Assembly: GCA_964414715.1 (NCBI GenBank)
Contig: CAYPXN010000040.1
Span: forward strand, 5,988-69,987
Source: an uncultured Pseudomonadota bacterium
GTDB lineage: Bacteria > UBA10199 > JADFYH01
Length of the DNA stretch: 64,000 nt
Reading direction: 5' to 3'
Both the position numbers and the translations under genes were made by a program. The notes under the pieces were generated by a model. The model worked only from the letters and a program-made list of their open reading frames with translations, was not told the DNA's origin and made no database searches. Positions 1-15,060 of this stretch are shown here, piece by piece (position 1 is the stretch's first letter; each line of letters begins with the position of its first letter).

Positions 1-8
1 TCACCACG

Positions 9-3000
9 ATGGTGATGAAAGGTAAAGCAGGTGTTTACGAAGGAGCTCGAGCCCGTTTTTTTGGTTTCATGGTGGAAACGGGTCCTGGTTGGCGATTGGA
101 CGGTTACTTGGGCGGCACTGAAAATAATATTTCAGATCAAGATCTCGCAAAAAGTACTCTCAAGCTTGCCCAGTGGTTTGTAAAAGAAGGAAAATACTCC
201 ACCGCTGCTCAAATCGCCTCTCTTATCAGCGAAGATATCTATGTAGGGGCTGAAGCAAAAAAACTCATCGAAGAAGATATTCCCTCAAGCGCGAAGTGGG
301 ACACGATACTCAACGCAGGTCACGGGCTTTTATATTTTACTCCTCTTGCTCCCGCCGTGGCTTTTGCCGATGTTTCTTCTCCTGCAACCATTGGTGAAGA
401 AAGTGGTGATACTCATGCATTGAATGCCTTAAAGGGAGTGGCTATGAATGCTGCCACCACGATAGTCCCCTTTGGCATTGCTCGCTGGGCAAGAGTGGGA
501 GCTGAAGCTGCATTCGTTGCGCGTGCTGCGACTTTAATTGAAAATCCCGCTGCTTTCAAAATTGCTGGATTTCTAGTCGGAACCACTACTGAAGCAGGAG
601 CCTTTACTCTTTCAAACATGACACTTCAATCCATGATGACGGGAAGTACCGCTAATTGGAATATCAAAAATTTTGGAAAAGAATTTGGATCCATGATGGT
701 GACTTTTGTTCTCTTGCATGGCGTGAGCATGAGAATGGAAAAAGTTGGAAAAAGTTTAGAAAAAGCAGGCGCTCTCGATACTTCTATTGGAAAAACTACT
801 TTTGGAGCGGCTAGCTGGGGAGTACGTGTCGGATCTTTTACAGCCACTGAATATATTAATGAAGCTATTGGCTTGAAAGAGCATGAAAATGTTCCTTTAT
901 GGATGCGTTTGCTGAGCTCGGCCATCACCGATGCACAAATGGTCAAAGCCGGAAAAGTGGTAGACATCCTGAGTGGTGGAAAAATTTCTAAAACAGAACA
1001 GGCAACACAATTAAAATACAAAGCTCATGAAATATTACCGACTTTGAAAAAAATAGGTTTCGATTTTAATCCTAATCCTGACCCCGGTAGTGGCCCTGGC
1101 TCTGGAAACATAATTCATACTGACTTTTCTTCACCCTTTCCTCAAAGTCCTGCGGAACTTGTGTTAAGGATCCTTGTTCAGAACTCTGTTCAAACAGGTC
1201 GTTTGGAAACGCCTCCTCAAGATACCATTGATCGTATTCATCAAATAATTAGCGATGGAAAAACAGACCTCCACTCTCCGGAAGGGCAAGCAAAGCTGGC
1301 GCTTTGGGTAACTTATGCACTGAGAGCAGGCGAGGGAGGAAAAAGTTTAACGGGTCCTGAGTTGGAACGCAATTATCATGAGCTCGATACAGGCACAAAA
1401 ACCTTTATTCAACAATGTGGTATAGACGGCGACTCGGCCTTGGGAAAACAGATCCAGGTCGAGTTGATGAATTTTGTTCTCAGCCGAAACATTTCTCCTA
1501 CCGAGTTCGGAAAATATTTGGAACATACTTCTGATATTTATAACACTTTGCACATGATTGCCTCTTCGCTTACCGGAAAGCCTGCGAGCTCTACTCCGGA
1601 AGGTCAAAAAATTATGGCGGGACTCATGCTGAGTCTTGCCCGCTCCGGAGACAATGCAGATCATATCCACGAATTGTGCGAACGATTAAGTGATGTCGAG
1701 CATGACTTAAGGTCTACGAATTTTTTCACACTGTCCGAAGCAAACACGCCGGATCAAAAACTTGCCCTCTTGTACTGGGCGGTGGAAAATGAAGTGTCGC
1801 AGGGAGATCTTGTTAAAATTGCAAATAACATCGAAGCTGGAAAATTGCATTTCGCATGGGAAAACGGGGATGTAAACTTAAGAAAGGGAGAAGGGGTTTT
1901 TGAACTTCGACCTGAAAACATTATTCATCCTGTGAGCGATGAACAAATTATTTCAGAAACACCCATTCCAGATACGGACAAGAAAGTCGCGGACGTTCAA
2001 GCCCCTCCCGTAGATGAAGCGTCTCAACGTGTGGCAGCCAGAGGAAAAGTCCAGGCTTCCCTGGTAAAGTCTGAACCCGTTGAAATATTGAATCGCTTGG
2101 CGAAGTCTTTTGGTATTTCAAAAAATTCGAGCTTTGTTCATGATCTTTCAGGCACAACAGCAGCTCGACATATTGACCCGGCAAAAGTAGAAAGCATTCT
2201 TAAAAAACTCAATCAAGCCCTTCAGGCAACAAAAATAAATCAGCGCTCCTTTAAAAATCCTGAGGCTGTTCGTGAGGAACTTTTCAAGAGAGTGGTGGAG
2301 GGAAAAATTACTGAACCCTTTGCCCAAATGCTTTTCGAAAAATGTAAAAGCCGAGAAATTAGTCCTGAAGATTTGGATTTTGTTTTGGGTTTTGATGCGA
2401 ATGGACGCAACATAGCTCTATTGGAAGCTGTTCCTGAATTGGGAGTCCAGTCCGCTTGGTTGGAAAAACTGGTCGAAAATCCTAAAGCATTTTACGACAA
2501 AGTAAAACGAGTCACCAATACGGACGGACGCCTTTTTAACCTTTTTAATATCATTTCCAAAGGACGAGAACTTAGCAAAGATGAAAAGGCAATTTTGATT
2601 CACAACCTCGAAGAAGCGGGCTTCAAAATTCCTGCTGCAGACAAAGAACAATATTTCGACGGACTGATTAGCATTATCAAAAATTACAATTCCTTAGGGC
2701 TAGAGGAGGTTTTTTCCTCTTCGGATCTTATCACACTCATGGCGGCACTTCACATGCACGGCGCAACCCCCGTCATTTCTGAGGCAAAAATGAAAGCTCT
2801 GGAGGATATTCCAGATCTTCTCCTTCGAAGACAAGCTTTCTTAAAAGTAATTTTAGAAGGCAATATGTCTGGATCGTCAACATTTGATCCTGTACGAGTA
2901 GCAGAAGGAGTAATGAATAATAAATGGGCTAAATCTGTTTTTTTAGATTTTGAGAATTCTTCTCATACACAAGCAAGACATCTTGCAGAAGGCAGCACGC

Positions 3001-6000
3001 CTTTTGCAAAAGCAGCCAAAGATTTCTTGGCAGGTAAAATTTCCGTTAATCAATACCATGAAACCCAGGATGCAATTGCAAAGCAAATGGTAAAAGATCA
3101 TCGTGTTGCGGGGGCTAAAGTTCTCTCATTTTTAAATATTTTAAGTTCGGATCCCTCTCTTAATATCAGTAAAAAACCACCTCCAACTGCTCGAATGAAA
3201 TCTATCACTGATATCGTGCCTAAAATAATACGACGGGGTTATACTCATGATGCAGCTCTTACTGATATTGCCGCTACTCGTGTGATTGTAAAATCAAATT
3301 CCGATGTAGAAGCAGTCATCGCAAAAATTCAGGAAAAATATCCCATTCGTGAGACTTATACCAAAGAGGGAGAAATAGAACTGGATCTCATGGATCCTGC
3401 TGAAGTGAGAGCACGAGGGCTGCCTGAAGTGGAAAATGAAGTTTGGTTGGATGTAAAGCCTGACAAAGACGCCATTCATCGTTTAGTCGAAGGTCATCCA
3501 GCAAGTGGTTATCGAGCTTTGCATGTCGTGGTTGAAATAGACGGAAAGCCCGTAGAAATCCAAATCAAAACCGAAGCGATGAATGAATGGGGAGAGATCG
3601 AACATAAACTCGTTTATAAAAACAAGAATCTTCCCGATGCAGTTATGGAACCCATCAAGGCATTCCGTAAAGCAGCGGCTGATTATTTAAGCAAGGCAGA
3701 ACATCTCAAACCGGGTGAAACTTTGGGAGAAATGCCCAAAGCCCCAGATATCCCGGACAACATTCCCAATGTAGCTGAAATTCGCAAGCAATTGGAAGCC
3801 ATGACAGCGCTAATGGAAAAATACACACCGGCTGTCGATGAATCACAAATCCCGATAGGCACGGGCTACACACAGGATGTAGGACGCAATTCTCCTCAGG
3901 AAATCCAAGAGATTGGACAAAGAGGAATGGATTTTGCTCAAGCTCTTCGGGAAGGAAACGAAAAAGACATTCCGCCTGCCTGGATCAGAAATATCTCTTG
4001 GACAAGTGAATATGGAAAACCTTTCTCTCGTCAGGCAGCTCTTCTTGCACAAACAGCAGCCCGAAACATTCCAATTTTAGTTCAAGAAATCCGTGCAAAA
4101 GAAATTTCTTATAGAAAAACAGGATCCACAGAAGAAAAAGGAAGAATCCTGAATCAACTGGACGATCTGTATATTCGCCTTGATCATCACAGTCAGGACC
4201 TGGAAAGATGGAAAAGGGTTTCTGATGGCGTAACACAATACGCAAAATCAATTTCAGACTTCTCCTTTCCTTATGTTCGTGATTCGGTAAGACACAGTGT
4301 GCGAAAAAATATGATGGAAACTGGTCGAAATAGGGAACACATGCCTGAACCGCCCTTGTCTCCGGTTTCCTTCGATATAGAAAGACCTGACTGGAGTGAA
4401 AACCCTGATCTGCGGGGAAATTTGATGGAAGCAGGTTTTGCCGGGCGAGATGTTTCATTGAATGACTACTCCATTCACTTTACAGTTTCGACTGAAGCGG
4501 AGCGTCGTAGTCTTTTGAACTTTATCGAACAAAACCCTGAAAGTAGAACTTATCGTATTTCTTCCGAAAGCCCTCATGTACTTCGCGTCCGCACCCCGCA
4601 GGGAAAAGATTTTCTGCTTGAAGTTCATCTTGCAAGCGAACGAAGAAATGCGAATACAGTCCCTGCAGAAGAAGATCTCCTCTTGGCTGCGGAGGCAAAA
4701 CCAAAACCAAAAGCCGTAGAACATGTTGAGTCCGAAGCGATGGTAAATCACGACGGGGGAGAGGGAGATGTAAGCAAAAATGTTTCTCCCAACAGATCTG
4801 AAGAAGCTACCAATCCTGGCATCAGAAGAAGAGGGCTTCCGGATGGCAGCTCCGCTCTCGTTTTGGGGATTCTCGCCGGAGGAGCAGCACTTCTTTACGG
4901 TTCAGATGCTCATGCAGCTGTTCATGAAGCAGGGAAAGCGATTTCAGATCCCGGCCACCTGATTTTTGAAGGTCTAAAATATGCAGCAGGATTCATTCCT
5001 GTTTTGGGAATGTTTTTTGGAAAAGGAGGGGGTGATAAAAAAAGTGTCGCACCAAGCATGGAGGTAAAACCCAATCCTCAGGATTCCGTCATTCTAATCG
5101 GCAGGAAGTACGGGCACTTTACAAATGATACTTCTGTATCCGGAACTCACTGCACACTGTATAAAACTTCTACAGGACAATGGGTTTTGCAAGATGGCGA
5201 CGCACAAGCAGGTCAGATCAAAGCAAGTAAAAATGGGGTTAAAATTTTGGATGCCGCAGGTAATGAAACGCCTCTTCCCAGTGGAGGAAGAACTTTTTTG
5301 CAAGACGGACAAGTGATTCTTGTGGGAAAATCAGCATTCATCTTTCGATCTCCGGATGCTCCTTCTCATCTCCAACAAGCTGTTCCCGGAGTTCCGCATA
5401 ATGCTGCCGCACGGGCTAGCGTAAAGCCTGCGCGCCAAAGCCCTGTGCCTGCAATCGATTTTACACAATATCCCTCTCTGACAATCCCTTCGACTTCGAA
5501 TCCTCGTGAAGAATTTATCATTGGAAATGCTGTGTATGAAGCTGGGGGTGGACAGGTGAATCATCTCACGGAGGACGGAGACCCCCATGCACGAGTTTAT
5601 TTTTCACTTCGAACCAACATTCAGGGCAAGTGGTTTGTTTATGATGGGAGAGTTGGGGGAGCTGAAAAAAGTCCTTATGGTATCGAAGTCATGATTTCGT
5701 CCGGAGAACGAAAAAGGGTTAATGGTTTTTCAGAACTTAATCCTGGAGATTTGATTATCTACAAAACACAGCGGGGAGAGCTTGTATATCGTTTTGATGG
5801 CCAAACTTCAGAAACTCCTTCCAGACCCGTAAGCGCAAACCCGGCAGACAAGGCACCAGAACCACCTCGCGTTTTGGCAGTATATGATGTTTCCAAATTT
5901 GCAGATTTAAGCGAAAACAACCCGAACTGGAAAAACAAACAGGGAGCTATTCCTGGGGTCGCTTTTGCCTCTCATGAAGGTGTGGGATACAAAGATCACA

Positions 6001-8948
6001 ACGAAGATCGTTATTACGCGATGAATTTGGGAGATGGTCGTACCATTACTTTTGCAATCGATGGTATGGGAGGGCAGGTGGGAGCAGAAAGGGCTGCCGA
6101 GATTATTCGTTCTTCCCTCGAAAGAGCCTTTGCGGAAGGTGCCAACATTCATGAAGCCATCGATGTAGCGAAGCGCACTCTAAGGGCTGTCAATCAACCC
6201 ATTGTCGATAACTTTGTTGCAAAAGGTAAAAAAGCTTATGAAGCAGATCCTCACTTACCAGGAGCGGTAGCTGTAGGGGTAAGCACAAAGGCCATTGAAG
6301 GTGGAAAATATGAAGCAGAATTTGTCAGCATTGGAGATGCAGAAGCGATTGTCATTCGACCTTCAGCCGATGGACGTTCAGCTCCCACCGTTCCTTTTTA
6401 TACCTCTAGACCTTCTGCCATGAATCTGCTCCTGCCCGATCGTAAAACTCCCACCCTTCAAGATGGCTCAGGTCGCAGACAAAGAAACTATACACTCGTG
6501 GAACGCCTCAACCCGATTGCAAACATCGTGGCTGAAGGACTGGGTCTTTCTTCTTCTGATATTCACTCTGATAAACAGGTATTGGAAAAAGGAGATATTA
6601 TCATTTCGGGTTCCGATGGATTTTTTGAAAACTTTGGCAGCTTTGATGAAATTGCAAAAGTCGTTCAGGCAAGTGGACAAAAAACTCCCCAGGGAATTCG
6701 GGATGCCTTGATGCGGGAAGCTCTTTTGCGTCAACAATTATTGAAAATGAGACAAAGTGGAGAAGTTCTTGAACTTACACACGAGAAATATGCTCTCGCT
6801 TATCAAACACTATTCCAACAGCAAGCCCCTGCAGGATGGCGTGGAATGTATGAATCCTCTCCCTCTCAACGTTTTGTTTTGGATAATAATGGCAATGTGG
6901 GAAGATGGGAAGACGTTGATCCCGCAAGTAAAACACTCAAAGAGCTCAACAATGTCCCACTGGCGATCACACACTTCAAAAGGGATAATACGACAGTGGG
7001 AGTTCAAATCTTGGGAGACAGCACTCCTCCTGTGCCTGAAGCCAAACCTGTTAAAGTAAGTCCTCCTCCACAAGAAGCACCCGTTGCAAAAGCTCCTGTG
7101 GGCGCAAAATTTCCTGATCCCGTTGCTCCAAGAGCAGGCAATGCCTATCATGTAGATTCGAATCCCACGGTCATCATGCCTGCACTTCGTCCCGAAAAAA
7201 TTCCTTGGCAACAAGTCGTAGGCAGCCCTTATCATTCGGTCATTTTAGGAAGACCTGCCAAGCAGGCTGGAGCCTCAAACCCCGCCAATCTTTTTCCTGT
7301 CGATGACCAGGCCATCGGCAGACGTCACGCTGAAATTGTAGTTGGGGCAGATGGCACGCGTTGGTTAAGAGATCTCAGTTATCAGGGAAGCTCGAAGGGA
7401 GAAAATTATGGAACTTGGGTTGCAGAACAGAACGCCTGGAGAAAACTGGCACCTGGAGAAAATTACCCATTAAAGGCAGGACAATCTTTCGCGCTGGGAA
7501 GCGTGATTGAAGAAGGAATGTCTCTGCCTTCGACAGGTGTAGGTCTTCCCAGCAAAAAATATAACCTCGATAACAGCATCGTTTATATATTGGGAACGGA
7601 TGGAAACACCTTGTTTAGCAATTCCCGTCCAACATCGAGAGGAGATCTTCTTCAAAAACCCGCAGCAGATCCTGTTATCGCAGGACGTGCTGCAATACGT
7701 CCTGTTCCGGTGAAGGATCTTCCACACACACCCTTGAATTCTTCCGGAGTAAGAATAGAAGGGAAATTGTATGGTGAAACGCCGGTACAAAATTTTTCTC
7801 TCCAAAATGTTTCTCAAGATCCAAACAAACCCACTTGGATAAGTGTTGCTTTTGGCGATCAACCTCGCTTGATTCAAGGATTTCCGGATACTTCCGGACA
7901 ACCTTTGTTCAAGGTAACCACCCGCAATGGAAAATACTATCTGCAACTGAATGCGGATCTGAGTCATGATGGTTGGAGCATAGACGGAACTCGACGTAGT
8001 ATGGGACAACAAGTGCTGGAAGGTGGAAAAACTTATCAAATTAAGATTGGAACTCATGATTTTAGTTTAACCTTACCTACTGCAAGTCCTGTCGTGGCAG
8101 AAGCAGCTCCTCCGAATACACAAAACCTTCCCAGAGAATGGCCTCCCTTGGGCAGCGCTGATACTATTATAGGAAGGGCAGATGGAAGTATTGCCCCACT
8201 TCATGATGGAAGAGGAATAAACTTTATCGATGATAGCGAAATTCGTACTATTTTTAGCCGCGCTTCAGAAGCAAAGGGTCGAGCAGATGGTGTTCCCTTT
8301 TCTGTTGACCGCTTTGGTCGTCATGTAATTCAGCAACAGGGGCAACGAGGCTGTACCGCTGCTGCAAGCGGAATGCTTATCCTGGATCAAGGTGGAAACT
8401 TAAGTGGAAGAGAAGTAAGAACTAGAAATTTAGGGAATGAAAAAACTACCGCATCGGATATTTATTATGCAGGACTTATTCCTATTCTTCCTCGGGGTGT
8501 GCAAAATCTTGAAACAGCCATCCAAAAACACGGTTCTATGGTTGTAGGTATTGGTGGAGAAATTGGAGGACATGTTATTGTTGTCGATTATTACTCGGAA
8601 GCAGAAGGAGTCGCCAGAATTCGAGATCCTTTTCATGGCTGGAGCATTGAAACCACGACAGATGCATTGAAAAGTCGGGGGGCTCGTGTTGAAGTGGGCG
8701 CTCAAAATTTTCAAACATTTTTTGCAGGTACTGCGCTTGCTGGAGTGCGTAGCCACGAACAGCTCAAGGATCCTGTCGGACTACTGGAACAGTATCTTCA
8801 AAACAGGGGTCAATGGAACAGCAACAAAATTACTATTGATAAGTTGATTGATTATATCAGGGCTCGCAGTTTCGTCATGGATTCTTATAACGACTCCATG
8901 AAGGCAAAATTGGATACTGTTCTCAGAAAATACGCTTATCCCAACTAA
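9..8948 (+). CDS. Giant multidomain protein of at least 2979 aa, probably 5'-truncated by the window edge. Contains a RelA/SpoT-like nucleotidyltransferase domain, a hydrophobic hairpin, FHA x2, a PP2C phosphatase, FHA x2, and a C-terminal papain-like Cys/His region.
   Basis: Uninterrupted ORF of 8940 nt. The frame is also open in the 8 nt upstream of the first ATG, so the true start probably lies outside the window. Motifs read from the translation: DIAATRVIV...GYRALHVVVE...EIQIKTEAMNEWGEIEHKLVYK (Rel/SpoT synthetase signature); NEDRYY...FAIDGMGGQ...SGSDGF (PP2C); G-R / S-R-x-HA / NG-T FHA signatures (VILGRP...IGRRHAEIV...GSSKGENYGTWV). Confidence 0.85.
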   Translation: MVMKGKAGVYEGARARFFGFMVETGPGWRLDGYLGGTENNISDQDLAKSTLKLAQWFVKEGKYSTAAQIASLISEDIYVGAEAKKLIEEDIPSSAKWDTILNAGHGLLYFTPLAPAVAFADVSSPATIGEESGDTHALNALKGVAMNAATTIVPFGIARWARVGAEAAFVARAATLIENPAAFKIAGFLVGTTTEAGAFTLSNMTLQSMMTGSTANWNIKNFGKEFGSMMVTFVLLHGVSMRMEKVGKSLEKAGALDTSIGKTTFGAASWGVRVGSFTATEYINEAIGLKEHENVPLWMRLLSSAITDAQMVKAGKVVDILSGGKISKTEQATQLKYKAHEILPTLKKIGFDFNPNPDPGSGPGSGNIIHTDFSSPFPQSPAELVLRILVQNSVQTGRLETPPQDTIDRIHQIISDGKTDLHSPEGQAKLALWVTYALRAGEGGKSLTGPELERNYHELDTGTKTFIQQCGIDGDSALGKQIQVELMNFVLSRNISPTEFGKYLEHTSDIYNTLHMIASSLTGKPASSTPEGQKIMAGLMLSLARSGDNADHIHELCERLSDVEHDLRSTNFFTLSEANTPDQKLALLYWAVENEVSQGDLVKIANNIEAGKLHFAWENGDVNLRKGEGVFELRPENIIHPVSDEQIISETPIPDTDKKVADVQAPPVDEASQRVAARGKVQASLVKSEPVEILNRLAKSFGISKNSSFVHDLSGTTAARHIDPAKVESILKKLNQALQATKINQRSFKNPEAVREELFKRVVEGKITEPFAQMLFEKCKSREISPEDLDFVLGFDANGRNIALLEAVPELGVQSAWLEKLVENPKAFYDKVKRVTNTDGRLFNLFNIISKGRELSKDEKAILIHNLEEAGFKIPAADKEQYFDGLISIIKNYNSLGLEEVFSSSDLITLMAALHMHGATPVISEAKMKALEDIPDLLLRRQAFLKVILEGNMSGSSTFDPVRVAEGVMNNKWAKSVFLDFENSSHTQARHLAEGSTPFAKAAKDFLAGKISVNQYHETQDAIAKQMVKDHRVAGAKVLSFLNILSSDPSLNISKKPPPTARMKSITDIVPKIIRRGYTHDAALTDIAATRVIVKSNSDVEAVIAKIQEKYPIRETYTKEGEIELDLMDPAEVRARGLPEVENEVWLDVKPDKDAIHRLVEGHPASGYRALHVVVEIDGKPVEIQIKTEAMNEWGEIEHKLVYKNKNLPDAVMEPIKAFRKAAADYLSKAEHLKPGETLGEMPKAPDIPDNIPNVAEIRKQLEAMTALMEKYTPAVDESQIPIGTGYTQDVGRNSPQEIQEIGQRGMDFAQALREGNEKDIPPAWIRNISWTSEYGKPFSRQAALLAQTAARNIPILVQEIRAKEISYRKTGSTEEKGRILNQLDDLYIRLDHHSQDLERWKRVSDGVTQYAKSISDFSFPYVRDSVRHSVRKNMMETGRNREHMPEPPLSPVSFDIERPDWSENPDLRGNLMEAGFAGRDVSLNDYSIHFTVSTEAERRSLLNFIEQNPESRTYRISSESPHVLRVRTPQGKDFLLEVHLASERRNANTVPAEEDLLLAAEAKPKPKAVEHVESEAMVNHDGGEGDVSKNVSPNRSEEATNPGIRRRGLPDGSSALVLGILAGGAALLYGSDAHAAVHEAGKAISDPGHLIFEGLKYAAGFIPVLGMFFGKGGGDKKSVAPSMEVKPNPQDSVILIGRKYGHFTNDTSVSGTHCTLYKTSTGQWVLQDGDAQAGQIKASKNGVKILDAAGNETPLPSGGRTFLQDGQVILVGKSAFIFRSPDAPSHLQQAVPGVPHNAAARASVKPARQSPVPAIDFTQYPSLTIPSTSNPREEFIIGNAVYEAGGGQVNHLTEDGDPHARVYFSLRTNIQGKWFVYDGRVGGAEKSPYGIEVMISSGERKRVNGFSELNPGDLIIYKTQRGELVYRFDGQTSETPSRPVSANPADKAPEPPRVLAVYDVSKFADLSENNPNWKNKQGAIPGVAFASHEGVGYKDHNEDRYYAMNLGDGRTITFAIDGMGGQVGAERAAEIIRSSLERAFAEGANIHEAIDVAKRTLRAVNQPIVDNFVAKGKKAYEADPHLPGAVAVGVSTKAIEGGKYEAEFVSIGDAEAIVIRPSADGRSAPTVPFYTSRPSAMNLLLPDRKTPTLQDGSGRRQRNYTLVERLNPIANIVAEGLGLSSSDIHSDKQVLEKGDIIISGSDGFFENFGSFDEIAKVVQASGQKTPQGIRDALMREALLRQQLLKMRQSGEVLELTHEKYALAYQTLFQQQAPAGWRGMYESSPSQRFVLDNNGNVGRWEDVDPASKTLKELNNVPLAITHFKRDNTTVGVQILGDSTPPVPEAKPVKVSPPPQEAPVAKAPVGAKFPDPVAPRAGNAYHVDSNPTVIMPALRPEKIPWQQVVGSPYHSVILGRPAKQAGASNPANLFPVDDQAIGRRHAEIVVGADGTRWLRDLSYQGSSKGENYGTWVAEQNAWRKLAPGENYPLKAGQSFALGSVIEEGMSLPSTGVGLPSKKYNLDNSIVYILGTDGNTLFSNSRPTSRGDLLQKPAADPVIAGRAAIRPVPVKDLPHTPLNSSGVRIEGKLYGETPVQNFSLQNVSQDPNKPTWISVAFGDQPRLIQGFPDTSGQPLFKVTTRNGKYYLQLNADLSHDGWSIDGTRRSMGQQVLEGGKTYQIKIGTHDFSLTLPTASPVVAEAAPPNTQNLPREWPPLGSADTIIGRADGSIAPLHDGRGINFIDDSEIRTIFSRASEAKGRADGVPFSVDRFGRHVIQQQGQRGCTAAASGMLILDQGGNLSGREVRTRNLGNEKTTASDIYYAGLIPILPRGVQNLETAIQKHGSMVVGIGGEIGGHVIVVDYYSEAEGVARIRDPFHGWSIETTTDALKSRGARVEVGAQNFQTFFAGTALAGVRSHEQLKDPVGLLEQYLQNRGQWNSNKITIDKLIDYIRARSFVMDSYNDSMKAKLDTVLRKYAYPN

Positions 8949-9018
8949 AAATAATTCCCACACATGTTATTGTGAGTCCTTCGAAGCAGGGTCTTGCAAT
9001 TCATTGATTGCATCAGAT

Positions 9019-11157
9019 CTAAGTCCTCCCCAAAATCCTCTTGTTCACTCCCAAATAATAACTTCTGTCTGCACGGTTGCGCAAAAACATGGGAAGATTT
9101 TCTCCAATTCTTGCTGCATCTCTCCATGTGCTTAATTCATAATGGGTCATGGTCCAGCGTTCTTCTTCGAGATAAGCCATCATTTCAGAAACGATCCTGC
9201 TGTGTCGATCCAGTGAGTAAATGACAGGGTCTGCTCCAACCTCCATTTCATCGTAATTTCCCGTCCTGTGTTTCCAGTGCTCCCATTCATGAATCAGCGC
9301 CTGCAATCGCATGACCACTTCGTCTCGAGCACGAGAAATTCCTTCGTGGGTCTGCATGTTGGGCCGAGGAATATTTTTAATTACAATCAAATCCTCAATC
9401 TCTGTTCTGGGAACAAAAAAAGCCACTCCACAGTCACTGGGGGCATGCAGGGAAGAAGCCATTTCCTGAAACTCTGCTTCATCCACAATAAGAATTTGAA
9501 AAGCATGGGAATGCCATGCCCTTTTCAAACTTTCTATATGAGGAGTAGTATTTGCTTCCAGAAGTAAAATCATTTCTTCTTCTGTAAAAGGTCTTCCTGA
9601 TTCCAGAAATGCAAAGACATTATCAAGCACTCTTCTTTTTGCTTCTTCCACCTTATGTGGATTTTTTAGAGATTCTTCCACGTCCATCATCACCGAAACC
9701 ACTTTTCTGGCCAGACGCTCATCATGGATAAAAGCAGTGGCCGAGCTTCCATTCATGAGATGAGCCACCAACTGGGGATCTATTCCATTGTTTACCATCC
9801 AAGCAATGGAGCCCAGTTTATCTTCCGAATGATCTCCTTCCGTGATTTCTTTCAGCTTGTAAGGAGAATCTTCCACTGCAAAAATTTGGCAGGCTCGTCG
9901 GAACACCAACATTCCTGCTGGACTTCGAAGGGCATAGGCGAGAACTTTATAAATATCCTTGGCCTCGTAACGTCCTCCCCTGAGCGCCTGAACAACAAGA
10001 GTAGAGTTTTTGATAAAGTCACGAAGATCCTGAAGGCTCAAACGATTCGAATAAGAAAACTCATCAAACAGCTTGTAAATTTCTGCCCGAGTGATTCCTT
10101 GCCGCATGGCCTCCAAAATTTTTCCCAAACGTTCTTGACGAAGCTGGGGAGCTTCGGAAATCCCTCGACTCAACAACTCATGCAACAACATGCGGTCAAA
10201 ACCACCTGTAGGCGTTTTATCTGCTTCGGTCGTAAAAACTTCCTGTATCCCTCGTAACACATGAAGTTGTTCCAGTGTTCCCGCTTGTGGCATGCGAGAA
10301 CAAATCTCAAGCAAGCTTGTATAATGACCCATTTTTTCAAAGGGAGTTTCCAGAGCGGTTTCAATAATTTCTTGCACATAATTGTCACGATAGGGGAGAT
10401 CGGGAAAACGCGGTTTCCATGTATCTAACCAATGTTGACGCTCGGCAGGATCCTTGAAATCAAACTCGTCTCGAGGGCTTGCAAAAACTTTCAGACCTCT
10501 TTGCATCGTTTCTTCAAAAACAAAGTCTTGCTTTGAAAGTTCCGGGCCTTGAACAAGACTCTCCATGGCTTTTGTTTCACGAGCTGATATTCCCCCGGTA
10601 ACCAGTTCTCCCAAACTCATTCCCACACCCATTGCCGTATTGGTCATTTCGGCGTGGAGATATTGCTGAGTGAGAGATCCTTCAGGAGCAAGAGTCAGGT
10701 GTAGGGCATAGCTGAGATGTTCTCCCGCCACCATTCCCGTATCCTGGATAAAATGATTGAGGAACAAATGGGAGCTGCCCAATTTCCCAAAAAGTTTCAG
10801 ATTGGCAAAGTTCAGGTAAGTGCCCAGAAATTCTTCGCGCGAAAAAACAGAGGAGAGGGAAGCGTTGTTTAAAAGAATTTGACTTCCGCGATAGGCACTC
10901 ACTTCTGTAAAAAGACCCACCAAAGGAGCCAAGACTTTGCCGGCAAGAGGAGCAATGGCATCATTGGCCAAAACAGCCGCTTTTCCAAAGCGATAAGCGA
11001 GCCCGCCTGCCATCATGGAAAGAGTGTTTCTCCAATTGCACGCCTCTTCCATGAACTGGTGATCCAGGGCATCCATTTCCCTTTGTTGGGAAGTCAAGTT
11101 GTGGGAGGAAGGCAAGGATGAGCTCACGCTCATTCTGCGATCCAAGAGGTTCATCAT
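9019..11157 (-). CDS. Hypothetical 712-aa protein with a C-terminal HExxH (HEWEH) zinc-metallopeptidase-like motif. Convergent with the giant gene. No signal peptide.
   Basis: A 2.1-kb ORF cannot be chance. The motif LIHEWEHWKH lies near the C-terminus. The stop codon is TAG. No family recognised by eye. Confidence 0.7.
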   Translation of the reverse strand: MMNLLDRRMSVSSSLPSSHNLTSQQREMDALDHQFMEEACNWRNTLSMMAGGLAYRFGKAAVLANDAIAPLAGKVLAPLVGLFTEVSAYRGSQILLNNASLSSVFSREEFLGTYLNFANLKLFGKLGSSHLFLNHFIQDTGMVAGEHLSYALHLTLAPEGSLTQQYLHAEMTNTAMGVGMSLGELVTGGISARETKAMESLVQGPELSKQDFVFEETMQRGLKVFASPRDEFDFKDPAERQHWLDTWKPRFPDLPYRDNYVQEIIETALETPFEKMGHYTSLLEICSRMPQAGTLEQLHVLRGIQEVFTTEADKTPTGGFDRMLLHELLSRGISEAPQLRQERLGKILEAMRQGITRAEIYKLFDEFSYSNRLSLQDLRDFIKNSTLVVQALRGGRYEAKDIYKVLAYALRSPAGMLVFRRACQIFAVEDSPYKLKEITEGDHSEDKLGSIAWMVNNGIDPQLVAHLMNGSSATAFIHDERLARKVVSVMMDVEESLKNPHKVEEAKRRVLDNVFAFLESGRPFTEEEMILLLEANTTPHIESLKRAWHSHAFQILIVDEAEFQEMASSLHAPSDCGVAFFVPRTEIEDLIVIKNIPRPNMQTHEGISRARDEVVMRLQALIHEWEHWKHRTGNYDEMEVGADPVIYSLDRHSRIVSEMMAYLEEERWTMTHYELSTWRDAARIGENLPMFLRNRADRSYYLGVNKRILGRT

Positions 11158-11398
11158 CGTTGTGCCCCGTATGAGCTATCATCAAAAACCGATAGCTGCC
11201 CCCGTTATGATTTTTTGAACTAAAACTTTTTCGGAGATTTTGCTCAAAAGTTGCCCTAGAAATCAGGGTTTATAAAAACTTTAATTATGACGCAGAGTGT
11301 TGAAATAAGGGCATTTTCACTGCTTTCCTATCGCAACATTTTTTGTTTGCGACCGATAACTATAAATGTATGAGGGCTATAATTTGGGAGGTTTTAAT

Positions 11399-12406
11399 AT
11401 GCAGGATAGGGGAAAAAAATTAAGTCGATGGATTTATAGTGTACTGACGGCTTTGATCTTTACTTTCGGTGCCTTCGCCTGCGGCGGGGGAGATCAAGCT
11501 CAAGTCGGCGGCATTATCGGAACGGTTTCTTTTAATACCCAAGCTTGCGTGCCTCAACAAAAAATCATCAATTTTCGTAACAGCGATACCCAAAATCCCC
11601 AACGTGTAATGGGCGTTTCCTTTGAATTGGGGACGAATGATAATGGTAATTACAAAATTGATAAAGTGGTGGTTGGCGCTACTGAATATCAACCGAGTTC
11701 AAATTTAGCACAAGATGTATTGATACCTGCCGGTGGTATCATGTCTGTATATACTACTTATACTCCTCGAGTAATTACAACAAAAACAGGCCACAATCTT
11801 AGTTATTTAGATCTGTTTTTAAATGGTCCAAAATTGGGAATTCTCCAAATAAAACTAGATGGTGAGTCGGATACGGCAAAAGAAGGTTGTTCTTCTGACA
11901 ATAAAAAAACATTCAAAGTTACCAAAGCAACTTTCATTATGAATCATCAAGATTTTACTTCAGGGCAACCTAGAGAGTTTGATCTCACAATCAAAAAAGG
12001 AGATTTAAATTTAGGCATGGGAAGTGACGGAAGTTTAACTTTAAGTGAAAGTTCAGATTTTCCTACTTTAACATTACCGCTACCTCCTGAATTGGGTGCT
12101 CCAGTGCCCGAATTAGATATTACCATGGATGCTGGAAGCTACACAGGCACACTTGATGACCAAGGAAAAATGGAGCTCCAAAATTTAAATTTAAAAGCAC
12201 TCGTTATCCCAATTCCAAATGTTACTTTAACAACTGAGCCGGCAAGTATTACTCAACCTAAGGGTAGTGTTAGTGTCGAAGGAAAGAGATTAGCTGATAA
12301 TAAAGCAACACTTGTTGCAGCTATACCAGTCCCCGACGATAGCAACTTAGCAAAACTTAAAGATGGTGCTTTTGGCTTAAAAATAGAAATTGAAGCTCAA
12401 CAATAA
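11399..12406 (+). CDS. Putative lipoprotein, paralog 1 of a tandem pair, with a conserved N-terminal domain and divergent C-terminus.
   Basis: GGGAGG RBS 8 nt upstream of the ATG at 11399. N-terminal signal peptide followed by Cys (FAC-GGG). The first ~170 residues are nearly identical to the downstream paralog. Confidence 0.75.
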   Translation: MQDRGKKLSRWIYSVLTALIFTFGAFACGGGDQAQVGGIIGTVSFNTQACVPQQKIINFRNSDTQNPQRVMGVSFELGTNDNGNYKIDKVVVGATEYQPSSNLAQDVLIPAGGIMSVYTTYTPRVITTKTGHNLSYLDLFLNGPKLGILQIKLDGESDTAKEGCSSDNKKTFKVTKATFIMNHQDFTSGQPREFDLTIKKGDLNLGMGSDGSLTLSESSDFPTLTLPLPPELGAPVPELDITMDAGSYTGTLDDQGKMELQNLNLKALVIPIPNVTLTTEPASITQPKGSVSVEGKRLADNKATLVAAIPVPDDSNLAKLKDGAFGLKIEIEAQQ

Positions 12407-12428
12407 AAACAAACAATTATAAATTGTC

Positions 12429-13448
12429 ATGGGGCACCGGAGAAATCTCATGACAAATCAAAATTCTAAATCCATTCGAACTTTATATTATTATCTGATT
12501 GCAATGTTTATTTGCACCTTTGGTGCTCTTTCTTGCGGTGGAGGAGATCAAGCTCAAGTCGGCGGCATTATCGGAACGGTTTCTTTCAATACCCAAGCCT
12601 GCGTACCCCAACAAAAAATCATCAATTTTCGTAACAGCGATACCCAAAACCCCCAACGTGTAATGGGCGTTTCCTTTGAATTGGGGACGAATGATCAAAA
12701 TAAATATAAAATTGATAAAGTGGTAGTGGGTAATACTGAATATCAGCCTTCCGCAAATTTAGCACAAAATGTATTGATCCCTGCAGGGGGCATCATGAGT
12801 GTCTATACTACTTATAAAACTACTAAAGTTACAGGCTCCTCTAACGACACTTCCTATCTCGACCTATTTTTAAATGGCCCTAAACTTGGTATTTTACAAA
12901 TCAGAATGAATGGACAAGCCCCTACTGCAAAAGAAGGCTGTGGAGAAGGGGAAACAATGACCTTTACCGTTAACAAGGCGACCATGGAAATTAGTATGCC
13001 TGGCAGTTCATTTGATGGTTTTAAAAATGAGGTAACTGCAACAGGTAATTTTGTTTTCCTAGTTGCTGGAGATGGTAGTGCTACTATTGATAAAGATGGT
13101 TTTCCAAAGTTAACCTTTGTTTCTGAAGCATTAAGATCCACTCCTGTAAACAGCAATCAACTCGAGATTAAATTGGATAACGACACCTTTACAGGTACAT
13201 TTACCGACAATAAACTATCAATCGATCATTTAAAGTTAAATGCTCTATTGCCTATTGATGGCGTCACGCTCAAATCCGAAGATCTTGCCATCACAGGTGA
13301 CAATGGTGCCTCCTTAACTCTGCATGGATCAGCTTTAACTGATTCAGGAGATATGAAAGTAGTCATAGGTGTAAAAGTACAAGGATTTAATGCTGCTTTA
13401 GACGGTGCAGCAATCGGAGTGACTTTCGAACTTAAAAAACAGAATTAA
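12429..13448 (+). CDS. Putative lipoprotein, paralog 2 of the tandem pair. Alternative start ATG at 12450.
   Basis: Signal peptide with an ALSC lipobox-like motif. The mature N-terminus (GGDQAQVGGIIGTVSFNTQACVPQQKIINFRNSDTQNPQRVMGVSFELGTND) is identical to paralog 1. Confidence 0.75.
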   Translation: MGHRRNLMTNQNSKSIRTLYYYLIAMFICTFGALSCGGGDQAQVGGIIGTVSFNTQACVPQQKIINFRNSDTQNPQRVMGVSFELGTNDQNKYKIDKVVVGNTEYQPSANLAQNVLIPAGGIMSVYTTYKTTKVTGSSNDTSYLDLFLNGPKLGILQIRMNGQAPTAKEGCGEGETMTFTVNKATMEISMPGSSFDGFKNEVTATGNFVFLVAGDGSATIDKDGFPKLTFVSEALRSTPVNSNQLEIKLDNDTFTGTFTDNKLSIDHLKLNALLPIDGVTLKSEDLAITGDNGASLTLHGSALTDSGDMKVVIGVKVQGFNAALDGAAIGVTFELKKQN

Positions 13449-13466
13449 AAAAAATTAAGATTATTT

Positions 13467-13504
13467 AAAACCCCTAATTGGAATTTCCAATTAGGGGTTT
13501 TTTA
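13467..13504. terminator. Bidirectional rho-independent terminator between convergent genes.
   Basis: aaaa-CCCCTAATTGG-aattt-CCAATTAGGGG-tttttt: perfect 11-bp stem, A-run on one side and T-run on the other. Confidence 0.8.
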
Positions 13505-13506
13505 TT

Positions 13507-14070
13507 CTATTCGCGTGGACAGCAGGCTAGAAAAATAGTTATGCTAACATTTGTTGTTGCATTTGGAGTAAGCACACTACAATACCTACCTCTAATAATA
13601 GCCTCCGAATCAGGAATGCCCCCAAAACACAATGCACCAGGAACAATAAAACTTTTTATTGCTGAACTACATGGACCCTCTAGAAACCAAGTAGGAATTG
13701 CACCATTGGTAGAAATACTACAACCTCCACTTACAGCCACTTGACCAGAGCCGCAATCTAATTCACCTGTAACACCTTGCCTGGCAGTGAAACTTCTGTG
13801 CACTTCCCTACAGCCACTCCAAAGAATCCCAGGCCCCCTCGGCCCAGCAGGCCCTTGCAAACCCATCGGACCTATTGGTCCCTGAGGCCCCTGAATTCCT
13901 TGGGGCCCACGCTCTCCCGCTCTCCCTGGAGGGCCTTGAGGACCCGGATCTCCCGTGAAGCCTCTAGGGCCTTCACTTCCATTTTCTCCTCGCGGACCTC
14001 TTTCTCCAGTACAGCTTTCTAATAACAAGCCTGCCAAAGCAACGGCTCCAATAGCAACAATGGGCAGCAT
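13507..14070 (-). CDS. Collagen-like triple-helix repeat protein (about 25 G-X-Y triplets) with an N-terminal hydrophobic anchor or signal and a Cys-rich C-terminal globular domain.
   Basis: Translation [70 protein letters not shown] 7 nt upstream of the second ATG ([10 protein letters not shown]...). The ORF track starts 11 codons earlier. Confidence 0.75.
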
Positions 14071-14191
14071 AAATACCTCCTTGTTTGGTATCCATGTGCC
14101 CACCTAAAGTTTTACTTTCTTAAATTTTAACTCGATAAAATACAAGAAAAGTTGTTAATATTTCTCAAGCGAACACAACACGGAGCGTTAT

Positions 14192-14671
14192 ATGAAAAAG
14201 ACCTTATTCCTGATTCTTTTATTTTGTAGTCTTCCTCTTTTCGCCGCTGACAAAACGCCCGAAACCCCATCTTACAATTATTCTCCCGAACAAATTCTTT
14301 CGGAATCAAAACTCATCGCAAAAATTAAATGGGAAACTTATCCCTCCCCCCACATTATTTCCGTGCTAGTTCAAAAAGTATTTTGGGGCAGGGGAGACTG
14401 GAAAAAGGGGATTGCCGGCTGGATTGAAGGCAAGGACTATGCTTTAGATATTGCTCCGAACGGCTGGGAAAAAACTTGGGAAGGAATGGATCCCAAATAT
14501 GTACCCTTAGATAAAGAAGCCATTCTTTTTATCGATGCTTCCGGAAAACTAGTGGCCATGGGAGAAATCAAGGGAGACAAAATCATGCTCACTTGTTCTC
14601 TCACAGGGCAGAAATGCCTCATAGGCCCAAAAAATGAAATCGCAACATCTTCACTCAAGGAAATTAAATAA
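14192..14671 (+). CDS. Secreted hypothetical protein with a signal peptide.
   Basis: MKKTLFLILLFCSLPLFA signal sequence. ORF of 159 aa. No family recognised. Confidence 0.55.
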   Translation: MKKTLFLILLFCSLPLFAADKTPETPSYNYSPEQILSESKLIAKIKWETYPSPHIISVLVQKVFWGRGDWKKGIAGWIEGKDYALDIAPNGWEKTWEGMDPKYVPLDKEAILFIDASGKLVAMGEIKGDKIMLTCSLTGQKCLIGPKNEIATSSLKEIK

Positions 14672-14680
14672 ACGCTATCA

Positions 14681-14772
14681 AAGGGTTTGCTTCGTCGTCC
14701 CACAAAGTGGGACTCCTCGCAATGACTCCAGCCAGGGTCATCGCGAACCCTGCGAAGCAGGGTGTGGCGATC
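14681..14772. repeat. Palindrome-bearing repeat element, copy 1 (REP/MITE-like), 3' of the GIY-YIG gene.
   Basis: Contains hairpins GTCCCACaaaGTGGGAC, CTCGCAATGAC-n9-GTCATCGCGA and ACCCTGCgaaGCAGGGT. Shares the GGGwTTGCTTCG...CTCGCAATGAC...GTCATCGCGAnCCTG backbone with copy 2. Confidence 0.55.
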
Positions 14773-14775
14773 CCG

Positions 14776-15060
14776 TTAGTATAAGTGAGAACTTAGATCT
14801 TTCCATTCATGGTTAAGAACTTCTATTAAAGCAACTTTCTTTTTTCTGGAACCTGCCTTTATTTGTTTTTCTCTTTGGATTGCATTTTCAGGATCATCGA
14901 ATACTTCGCAGTAAACAAGTTTGTTTAAATTATACTTCTTCACAAATCCAATACTCTCTTTTGACAGATGTTCATTCAATCTGCGTGATAAGTTATTCGT
15001 AACCCCAGTATAGAGAACAGTATTTCTAGAATTTGTGAGAATATAAACGAAATATGGCAT
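14776..15060 (-). CDS. Small GIY-YIG nuclease superfamily protein (COG2827/UPF0213-like).
   Basis: Translation YFVYILTNSRNTVLYTGVTNNLSRRLNEH carries the GIY...YIG motif. Total length 94 aa. Confidence 0.8.
   Translation of the reverse strand: MPYFVYILTNSRNTVLYTGVTNNLSRRLNEHLSKESIGFVKKYNLNKLVYCEVFDDPENAIQREKQIKAGSRKKKVALIEVLNHEWKDLSSHLY

Follow-up and report, generated by a model that had tools for sequence, protein, structure and literature searches.

Several described systems resemble parts of the locus presented here. In polymorphic and giant toxins, releasing peptidases are dedicated to very large multidomain proteins and exist either as embedded or as stand-alone modules, and the immunity genes are small, single-domain, non-enzymatic and located in the operon of the toxin (PMC3482391). 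In effector-associated-domain systems (Kaur, Burroughs, Iyer and Aravind, eLife 2020; PMC7159879), copies of small, non-enzymatic, mostly helical domains are found on a core protein and on enzymatic proteins encoded nearby. Thr-phosphorylation modules of the type VI secretion pathway comprise a Hanks kinase, a PP2C phosphatase and an FHA protein (PMC5995506). At the level of single domains, the M48/M56-like minigluzincins, ImmA/IrrE (M78) and the SprT-like zincins all place an HExxH active-site helix after a small sheet and a backing helix, and the third ligand of the gluzincin layout is a Glu, usually within ExxA, that lies on a glutamate helix further downstream (PMC6414381).

The window, by which we mean the whole stretch of 64,000 nucleotides that was analysed, contains a gene for a 712-aa HExxH protein that converges on the gene of a giant protein. 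As with the releasing peptidases, a probable peptidase appears to be dedicated to a very large multidomain protein, and its module can be embedded in that protein, as in the giant of one related locus (L012); unlike them, the giant lacks trafficking domains, repeats and a toxin/immunity organisation, and the putative peptidase is normally a separate gene without an export signal. The giant has FHA and PP2C-like domains in common with the Thr-phosphorylation modules, and Ser/Thr kinase domains are likewise present, here on paralogous proteins that have the same N-terminal domain (N-domain) as the 712-aa protein. However, the domains are here fused in proteins of 2,600 to >7,000 aa, a RelA_SpoT domain and a seemingly dedicated metallopeptidase are added, and no secretion-system genes lie nearby. 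The effector-associated-domain systems likewise have a helical domain, here seemingly non-enzymatic, that heads many enzymes, a position beside a large core that here seemingly has a related copy, and a likeness of copies within a genome, which holds here for four proteins of one metagenome-assembled genome (MAG) and not for the giant's own copy. They differ in that the core here is a giant with FHA, PP2C-like and RelA_SpoT domains and no MoxR-vWA, STAND or GTPase, the domain (~185 aa) is not small, the core copy is very divergent, and the genes are convergent rather than operonic.

The convergent gene pair

A preliminary description had recorded a 712-aa reading frame ending tail-to-tail with the giant gene, 70 bp from its stop, with HEWEH near its C-terminus. 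The ORF list and the translation agree on every point: the frame runs from an ATG on the minus strand at 9019-11157, HEWEH occupies residues 623-627 (nt 9277-9291), and the giant gene stops at 8948, which leaves a spacer at 8949-9018. The features of the pair are as follows.

1-8948, plus strand: 3' part of the giant gene (ORF; identical contig L002; Pfam)
483-1031, plus strand: N-domain-like internal region of the giant (hmmsearch E 5e-6, two collinear pieces)
7701-8084, plus strand: conserved ~130-aa domain of the giant (iterated local HMM search, BLAST)
8085-8945, plus strand: 287-aa C-terminal extension of the giant (comparison with other giants)
8949-9018, no strand: 70-bp spacer between the convergent stops (sequence)
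9019-11157, minus strand: complete 712-aa gene, whose product comprises N-domain, linker, central helical region and zincin-like module (ORF list, translation, homologues, AlphaFold2 model)
9022-9507, minus strand: zincin-like (gluzincin-type) module, aa 551-712 (AlphaFold2 secondary-structure order)
9175-9186, minus strand: EMMA, aa 658-661, ExxA with the predicted third zinc ligand (translation, conservation)
9277-9291, minus strand: HEWEH, aa 623-627, predicted zinc-binding and catalytic motif (translation, conservation)
9508-10452, minus strand: central all-helical region, aa 236-550 (alignments A3 and A4; pLDDT mostly >95)
10453-10545, minus strand: flexible linker, aa 205-235 (pLDDT <50 at residues 205-230)
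10546-11100, minus strand: N-domain, aa ~20-204, all-helical and Gly/Ala-rich (HMMER matches, model)

The 712-aa gene is a real coding gene beyond chance, since homologues at 22-46% identity exist (712-984 aa in size) and an AlphaFold2 model based on 67 of them reaches high confidence; its start site is supported by the conservation of its first residues, LDRR, in homologue P0002. By our own estimate, an HExxH motif would occur by chance in a few percent of such proteins, but here nearly all homologues keep it. The protein had been called an orphan with HEWEH as its only recognisable feature. This holds for curated resources, as the whole protein matches no Pfam family at E up to 1, gives no meaningful match in NCBIfam and none in a PDB sequence search; an exhaustive HMMER search, however, recovers 760 related protein clusters and reveals two more conserved modules besides the one with HEWEH. 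It should be noted that the family was recovered by the exhaustive search alone, and that a word-indexed protein search returned just two to three matches and missed nearly all homologues. PDB searches with profiles A3, A5 and A2 returned nothing or low-complexity noise.

The giant ORF leaves the window at its 5' end. Counted from the first ATG inside the window it encodes 2,979 aa, and the identical Logan contig L002 extends it to at least 3,309 aa. Its Pfam matches, numbered from nt 9, are RelA_SpoT (aa 1062-1207) and FHA (aa 1706-1773, the best of two stretches), together with a PP2C/SpoIIE-like match (aa 1996-2240) that is below the gathering score. Pfam detected no RHS or filamentous-haemagglutinin repeats, trafficking domain or known toxin domain in the part of the giant within the window, and the full-length giants of L013 and L018 have no signal peptide. 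The conserved ~130-aa domain forms the very C-terminus of the giants of L006 and L018, from which the 287-aa extension is missing; the giant of L015 has a tail of similar length, and neither Pfam nor a PDB sequence search gave a match for the 287-aa extension. In the spacer, a consensus scan found a weak hairpin followed by a T-run (minus strand, 8976-8957), which is terminator-like and not above the expectation from shuffled sequences.

Linkage of the pair across genomes

The linkage of the two genes was assessed in 14 independent stand-alone loci that were retrieved only by similarity to the 712-aa protein (24-46% identity, GC 42-68%). A giant, or a large gene cut by the contig end, directly adjoins the HExxH gene in 12 of these loci, and in 11 of the 12 this neighbour resembles the window's giant in one or another region (FHA, PP2C-like, RelA_SpoT or others); the giant of L019 has no detectable similarity to it. 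The pair is convergent in 11 of the 12 linked loci and divergent in the twelfth, and in L016 (one MAG) the orientation has changed with adjacency kept. Family members without a giant neighbour are found in L008 and L003. In L012, the HExxH module is fused into a giant of >2,471 aa, with residues 449-704 aligning to residues 1598-1860 of that giant. This adjacency, the similarity of the neighbours and the fusion support the proposal of a specific partnership between the 712-aa protein and the giant gene, and the suggested search for homologues spread widely without giants gave the opposite picture. It is thus very likely that the 712-aa protein and the giant work together. Counting against a partnership, the genes converge and are not co-transcribed, an unusual arrangement for the subunits of a single machine.

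The housekeeping neighbours evolve far more slowly than the pair: relative to the L015 locus, identity is 43% for the HExxH protein and 48% for the giant, against 86% for MurJ, 84% for LysRS and about 75% for AhpC and NUDIX. The surrounding genes include BamA, LolCE-like, SpoT, LysRS, NadE and hopene cyclase, and in the window's lineage the locus has a fixed, vertically inherited position among MurJ, S20, NUDIX and AhpC. A mobile island or prophage was rejected, as the context is of the housekeeping type and syntenic in relatives. Two uncharacterised genes upstream (11366-13448) were also considered as members of the module and rejected; their conservation stops at the close lineage (L013, L015) and does not extend to distant loci. 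No description of the gene pair or of its domains was found in the literature, and both the family and the gene-pair module are new.

Modules of the 712-aa protein

The structure of the 712-aa protein was modelled with AlphaFold2, which reached a pLDDT of 41 from only two sequences and a mean pLDDT of 89.8 (pTM 0.70) when redone with 67 homologues. In this model the C-terminal module runs in the order strand 553-558, helix 560-569, strands 579-582 and 589-594, and helices 604-632 and 651-672, with pLDDT mostly 88 or higher from strand 553-558 to helix 604-632. HEWEH lies inside helix 604-632, and E658-M-M-A661 inside helix 651-672. This is the gluzincin order of strand, backing helix, two strands, HExxH helix and Glu helix, in terms of element order only and not of three-dimensional packing. 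Among homologues, H623 is conserved in 67 of 67, E624 in 65 of 67 and H627 in 64 of 67; E658 is found in 64 of 66, and A661 in 60 of 66 with Ser in the remaining six, in a family whose overall identity is only 21-46%. The spacing from H627 to E658 is 31-32 residues in 53 of 64 sequences. As modelled, the module shares with the minimal gluzincins an active-site helix after a small sheet and backing helix, and a downstream helix with the predicted ExxA third-ligand Glu ~31 residues from HExxH. It differs from them in having no HMM match to these families (whole protein and 36 trimmed modules) and in always following a conserved helical region of ~315 aa, usually also with the N-domain. An extra conserved His, H630 (HExxHxxH, 57 of 67), and the invariant R654, four residues before the Glu, likewise set it apart.

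A Pfam scan of the 36 trimmed C-terminal modules (alignment A5) at E up to 10 found no family matched by more than one member, and M78 was matched by a single member at E 0.12. Foldseek gave no significant match of the model to any solved peptidase, and the sole fold hint for this module is a SprT-like match in BFVD (probability 0.72, E 1.3). The family of the 712-aa protein is thus undescribed. The conserved motifs and the modelled order of elements nevertheless suggest that its HExxH/ExxA module is a zinc metallopeptidase of the gluzincin type that is competent for catalysis, and the members of this new family are probable zinc proteases. Because the general-base Glu, both His and the ExxA Glu are all kept, the module does not look like a decayed pseudo-enzyme.

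The central region has the motifs HPxGxLxxxR (412-421), K434 and NGTxxTAFxxDxRLARKVVSV (469-489), and in the window's protein it is shorter, missing ~50 aa of most homologues. The linker before it varies in length among homologues, and scattered conserved Pro residues are found in the N-domain-only set.

The N-domain (~185 aa) is present in 110 of the best 150 matches of the exhaustive HMMER search, mostly within the first 40 residues. Its family, which is absent from Pfam and NCBIfam, comprises 553 clusters at E <1e-10, and the domain is common to hundreds of proteins with other C-terminal enzymes. Fusion partners include Pkinase, FGE-sulfatase, ResIII helicase, HTH, sigma-70, SIR2, hydrolase and RNA-polymerase alpha-CTD. 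The AlphaFold2 model shows helices over residues 23-202 (pLDDT mostly >90) and the invariant polar residues are E85, H135, Q138, E170 and N173; the domain has no Pfam or PDB relative and no known catalytic motif. A transmembrane N-domain was considered and rejected, the median of the maximum 19-residue hydropathy window being 1.25; the best window of the domain is 1.5, and 6 of 88 family members exceed 1.6. Since the 712-aa protein has no signal peptide or transmembrane segment by sequence and hydropathy, and since its N-domain is elsewhere fused to cytoplasmic-type enzymes, it is presumably cytoplasmic.

A region related to the N-domain is also detected inside the giant. The N-domain profile matches the same internal region in the giants of L013, L015 and L016, with E-values of 1e-6 to 1e-4 for the four giants. 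When compared by hhalign with the four giants, the profile yields a probability of 87% (E 3.7e-6), and 20 column-shuffled controls all stay at or below 0.4%. The likeness is weak (~21% identity), and the four giants are homologous in this region and hence not independent. The giant's copy is the most divergent copy of the domain, not the most similar, and in the giant of L016 this region exceeds the transmembrane threshold. In the MAG GCA_046346885.1, four different proteins have N-domains that share 42-60% identity with one another and only 32-35% with the N-domains of HExxH orthologues elsewhere (one genome), a pattern that is expected if N-domains co-evolve with a common partner.

Proposed function and alternative explanations

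The explanation that we favour, at roughly an even chance of being right, is that the 712-aa protein is a cytoplasmic, catalytically competent metallopeptidase of the gluzincin type and the dedicated partner of the neighbouring giant. The giant would be a hub, whose FHA domains would bind phospho-threonine and which also has PP2C-like phosphatase and RelA/SpoT-like nucleotidyltransferase domains. The 712-aa protein would be tethered to it through the N-domain, which may contact the giant's related region or a receptor common to N-domain proteins, and the HExxH/ExxA module, on its flexible linker, would cleave either the giant itself or proteins that the giant captures. Processing of the giant would then be a trans reaction in this locus and a cis reaction wherever a giant includes the module. 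A processing role, one of those initially suggested, is compatible with the data. What we infer comprises zinc binding, proteolysis, N-domain docking, which substrate is cleaved, and whether the biological role lies in signalling or in conflict.

The other roles initially suggested, immunity or chaperone, fare differently. That the 712-aa protein is an immunity protein, antitoxin or chaperone that neutralises or folds a toxic C-terminal domain of the giant is an idea which we consider largely refuted and to which we would assign hardly any probability. The genes are tightly adjacent, and the giant combines a variable C-terminal tail with a RelA_SpoT-like domain; toxins are known among stand-alone RelA_SpoT enzymes. 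However, the preliminary premise of a polymorphic toxin finds no support in the signalling-type RelA_SpoT, FHA and PP2C-like domains of the giant or in its Pfam matches, which include no trafficking domain, RHS or filamentous repeats. Because the protein is large (712-984 aa in the family), with three modules, an HExxH...ExxA catalytic signature and convergent transcription (11 of 12 linked loci), it does not resemble the immunity genes of PMC3482391, and it stays conserved where the C-terminus of the giant differs. We also think it improbable, to a lesser degree, that the HExxH module is a pseudo-enzyme that binds metal or acts as a scaffold, or a hydrolase of another kind than a peptidase, in which case the protein would be a subunit of the giant with a purely structural or regulatory role. 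The lack of a significant fold match to any solved peptidase and the third His (H630) and invariant R654, which are not standard gluzincin features, would fit such a role, and related multi-domain systems often contain peptidase domains that are inactive (PMC7159879); the retention of the general-base Glu, both His and the ExxA Glu is unlike decayed pseudo-enzymes.

It is unlikely, but deserves more weight than the pseudo-enzyme, that the N-domain is a delivery or membrane-insertion module, that N-domain proteins and giants are exported effectors of a predatory or host-associated bacterium, and that the HExxH protein acts after secretion, as a toxin or an effector protease, instead of being a partner that acts on the giant. 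Many sets of secreted effectors are built in this way, with one N-terminal module shared by proteins whose C-terminal enzymes vary (PMC3482391). The N-domain is also Gly/Ala-rich and moderately hydrophobic, with the L016 giant's region passing the transmembrane threshold, the pair evolves fast, and the nearest named relatives are MAGs of uncultured 'Deltaproteobacteria'. Against export, a signal peptide is lacking, neither the window nor the fetched loci contain a secretion-system gene, most N-domains are below the transmembrane threshold, and fusions to sigma-70, HTH, RNA-polymerase alpha-CTD and helicase make unlikely cargo; in addition, the peptidase beside a giant in 12 of 14 loci is left unexplained. 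Slightly less doubtful is a place for the pair in an anti-phage or conflict system, in which the giant would be a sensor and the N-domain would resemble an effector-associated adaptor, bringing in effectors that can replace one another; the favoured explanation is thereby narrowed to one defined biological role. The logic of PMC7159879 is partly mirrored by a domain found on enzymes beside a core with a related copy, N-domain copies within one genome are more alike, SIR2 and peptidases are typical effectors, the pair evolves rapidly, and the giant weakly matches the PADLOC candidate PDC-S33 (E 2e-8, aa 1010-1110). In contrast, the HExxH protein has no match in PADLOC-DB 2.0, none of the giants or neighbours scanned showed an NTPase core (MoxR-vWA, STAND, GTPase), the locus has a fixed housekeeping position in the window's lineage rather than lying in a mobile island, and the N-domain is larger than the described domains and most divergent in the giant.

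A broader reading may be put forward tentatively, as something that we think possible but would not expect: the N-domain would define an undescribed adaptor network of uncultured bacteria labelled 'Deltaproteobacteria', in which giant FHA/PP2C-like/RelA-SpoT (and kinase) hubs recruit interchangeable enzymes through homotypic contacts between ~185-aa helical domains. The recruited enzymes would include the new gluzincin, SIR2, Ser/Thr kinases and helicases, with the metallopeptidase obligatory and co-inherited. If true, signalling or immunity machines centred on giant proteins would constitute a class of their own, which is new. Metagenomes commonly encode giant bacterial proteins, which have hardly been characterised, and one class of them now gains a fixed, small and tractable partner. 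As a probable zinc protease, this partner offers a clear active site to mutate and, if the partnership is physical, a handle with which to purify, cleave or activate proteins of 3,000-7,000 residues, which are out of reach of direct study. Neither Pfam nor NCBIfam contains the metallopeptidase family or the widespread N-terminal domain described here, and the latter, as a putative docking domain, would link giants to hundreds of other enzymes. N-domain proteins occur in tandem beside giants in L016, L021 and L012.

Linkage of the HExxH gene and the giant gene

The preliminary description placed a 712-aa orphan gene tail-to-tail with a giant gene and proposed that the two may be partners, and both the arrangement and the proposed association were borne out. 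The following features define the locus:

9019-11157 (-): 712-aa HExxH protein, ATG start
9277-9291, within that gene: HEWEH, residues 623-627, the predicted zinc-binding motif
stop at 8948 (+): giant gene, open at the 5' edge of the window and encoding at least 3,309 aa on the identical public contig L002; 70-bp spacer between the convergent stop codons

The label of orphan holds in that Pfam and NCBIfam (E up to 1), PDB sequences and PADLOC gave no match to the 712-aa protein, and a word-indexed search of 5.8 billion proteins returned only itself and one homologue (42% identity, groundwater). It fails, however, under exhaustive HMMER searching of 1.84 billion cluster representatives, which gave 760 matches at E <=1e-3 (553 at <=1e-10).

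Loci were gathered by similarity to the 712-aa protein only, from GTDB genomes, JGI metagenomes and exact-protein look-ups, and 14 stand-alone loci were left after duplicate removal.

Neighbours of the HExxH gene in the 14 independent stand-alone loci (L numbers are collected loci)
Window: convergent giant, 70-bp gap
L006: convergent, at least 1,850 aa, gap of ~10 nt
L013: convergent, 2,663 aa, three FHA stretches
L015: convergent, at least 3,965 aa, 20-nt overlap of the called genes
L004: convergent, 1,456 + 1,917 aa, RelA_SpoT, FHA
L011: convergent, 2,998 aa, FHA, TPR
L009: convergent contig-cut fragment, similarity to FHA region
L010: convergent contig-cut fragment, PP2C-like/FHA similarity
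L018: convergent, 3,315 aa, 4-nt overlap
L019: convergent, at least 3,869 aa, 4-nt overlap, similarity to window giant not detectable
L021: convergent, at least 7,278 aa, Response_reg, FHA, PP2C-like
L016/L017: divergent giant, at least 4,617 aa, RelA_SpoT, FHA
L008: no giant neighbour
L003: no giant neighbour; 449-aa version with truncated N-terminus

A giant or a contig-cut large neighbour is thus present in 12 of the 14 loci, with 11 similar to the giant of the window and 11 convergent. The loci span 42-68% GC, and adjacency was kept through one change of orientation. Genes of such length are rare among bacterial genomes, and the adjacency is therefore not due to chance. A gene fusion in L012, where query residues 449-704 (the HExxH module) correspond to residues 1598-1860 of a giant exceeding 2,471 aa, points the same way. 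The fused ORF lies at 7646-15058 (+), preceded on the same strand by a gene for a 1,068-aa protein carrying the N-terminal domain described below (N-domain). The 3' ends of the pair are separated by only -20 to +70 nt over deep divergence, and this near-universal convergence, unusual for partners, hints at regulation by transcript overlap.

Predicted active site and the N-terminal domain

Splitting the query revealed two independent modules, with residues 1-215 matched by 110 of the 150 top entries, mostly within 40 residues of the protein's start, and residues 236-712 by 67 of the 150; loci that apparently matched the C-terminal part only also carry divergent N-domains. An AlphaFold2 model built on an alignment of 67 homologues (mean pLDDT 89.8, pTM 0.70) has the following parts:

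aa ~20-204: helical bundle (N-domain)
aa 205-235: disordered linker
aa 236-550: all-helical region
after aa 550: C-terminal alpha/beta module

In the model, the C-terminal module runs from a strand (553-558) through a helix (560-569) and two strands (579-582 and 589-594) to a helix with HEWEH (604-632) and a helix (651-672) with E658-M-M-A661. This order matches that of gluzincins, in which three strands and a backing helix are combined with an active-site helix and with a glutamate helix bearing ExxA (PMC6414381).

Conservation of predicted active-site residues among homologues
H623: 67/67
E624: 65/67
H627: 64/67
E658: 64/66
A661: 60/66, Ser in the other 6

Family members are only 21-46% identical to the 712-aa protein, and conservation of this kind would be expected of an active enzyme. 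In the central helical region, the window protein is missing ~50 residues (at aa ~385-393) that are present in most homologues, corresponding to positions 144-194 of the C-region profile, and the gap also appears in the alignment with the homologue P0002. A disordered, Ser/Thr-rich leader (aa 5-22; 11092-11145, -) includes a conserved L-(T/S)-x-x-Q immediately before the N-domain; as pure speculation, it could be a phospho-acceptor site for the FHA domains of the giant.

No relatives of the N-domain were found in Pfam or PDB. It is all-helical and Gly/Ala-rich, with invariant polar residues and a hydropathy that is not transmembrane-like. Among 59 N-domain proteins lacking the HExxH region, most have no identified C-terminal domain; the others include Ser/Thr kinase (6), FGE-sulfatase (5) and ResIII/DEAD helicase (3) domains, and one case each of HTH, sigma-70, RNA-polymerase alpha-CTD, GHKL ATPase, alpha/beta-hydrolase and phosphoribosyltransferase. 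N-domain proteins also cluster beside giants (L016, L021, L012 and L020). For instance, L016 10001-16534 (= L017; MAG GCA_046346885.1) contains three successive genes that each begin with the N-domain (the HExxH protein, a 528-aa N-domain-SIR2 protein and an 845-aa N-domain protein) between the RelA_SpoT/FHA giant and a second giant, of at least 5,420 aa, that carries a kinase domain. L021 has a 2,255-aa N-domain protein, the HExxH family member and the convergent giant in that order, and L012 and L020 have similar tandems.

The N-domain profile also matches a stretch inside the giants of the window, L013, L015 and L016 (E 1e-6 to 1e-4), as two collinear pieces. An hhalign comparison of the N-domain with the giant profile gave 87% probability (E 3.7e-6), against <=0.4% for 20 column-shuffled controls. 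Four N-domains on different proteins of one MAG share 42-60% identity with each other, but with the N-domains of HExxH orthologues from other genomes they share only 32-35%. This higher identity inside one MAG fits co-evolution with a common partner.

The giant protein and functional interpretation

The window giant has a RelA_SpoT nucleotidyltransferase domain, FHA and a PP2C/SpoIIE-like region (below the Pfam threshold), and other giants have subsets of these along with TPR, receiver or kinase domains. Since a canonical long RelA/SpoT (HD, RelA_SpoT, TGS, ACT) is encoded 20 kb away at 29224-31383 (+), the RelA_SpoT domain of the giant is an additional, non-housekeeping copy. The preliminary description had reasoned from polymorphic toxin loci; RHS or filamentous repeats, toxin domains and signal peptides were sought in the giants and none were found, and the domain content suits a signalling hub or sensor rather than a polymorphic toxin. 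The defining features of immunity proteins and antitoxins listed in PMC3482391 are likewise absent from the HExxH protein, and the toxin-immunity framing was rejected.

These data support the probable zinc metallopeptidase and the giant FHA/PP2C-like/RelA-SpoT protein being dedicated functional partners. In the most economical mechanism, the peptidase would be tethered to the giant by the common helical domain, or by a receptor for all N-domain proteins, and would then cleave the giant itself or giant-bound proteins; the occasional giant with the module fused into it would represent this arrangement in cis. We would like to stress that we infer each of zinc binding, proteolysis, docking and substrate. 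It is also possible that the HExxH and N-domain proteins are secreted effectors, or that the pair is an anti-phage system, a possibility that parallels the effector-associated-domain principle (PMC7159879) but is opposed by the lack of an NTPase core and of a PADLOC match. New here are a gluzincin-type family, the N-terminal domain, which is widespread, and the conserved pairing of peptidase and giant genes.

The L006 and L018 giants lack the last 287 aa of the window giant (8085-8945, +), for which Pfam and PDB gave no match; the L015 tail is similar in length. The window tail has QQQGQRGCTAAA, which is reminiscent of the Gln...Cys motif seen in cysteine peptidases of the papain/C39 type. At aa 1010-1110 (3036-3338, +), a weak PADLOC match to the candidate defence protein PDC-S33 (E 2e-8) runs into the first part of the RelA_SpoT-like domain.

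Chromosomal setting

The window is ordinary chromosome (MurJ, S20, NUDIX, AhpC, LysRS, LolCE-like permeases, BamA, SpoT, NadE and squalene-hopene cyclase), and the nearest named LysRS sequences, found in MAGs labelled 'Deltaproteobacteria bacterium', are 74-79% identical. In L013 and L015 the pair lies beside MurJ-S20-NUDIX-AhpC, the same place as in the window, which indicates vertical inheritance in this lineage. Between the window and L015, identity is 43% for the HExxH protein and 48% for the giant, versus 86% for MurJ and 84% for LysRS; the pair is evolving much faster than its neighbours. Despite the similarity of MurJ, there is a large GC shift between these close relatives (L015 versus window: MurJ GC3 0.72 versus 0.43; locus GC 0.56 versus 0.42).

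Other genes observed near the pair are:

11366-12406 (+) and 12429-13448 (+): tandem paralogues of 346 and 339 aa, head-to-head with the HExxH gene
13507-14103 (-): 198-aa protein with collagen triple-helix repeats

The paralogues, which have no match in Pfam or PADLOC, are ~44% identical to each other's orthologues; both are kept in the close relatives L013 and L015, whereas distant loci do not have them. Collagen-repeat genes occupy the equivalent position in L015. In L003, from a high-GC 'Deltaproteobacteria' MAG, the DNA polymerase III alpha gene (438-5495, -) contains an intein that includes a LAGLIDADG endonuclease domain.
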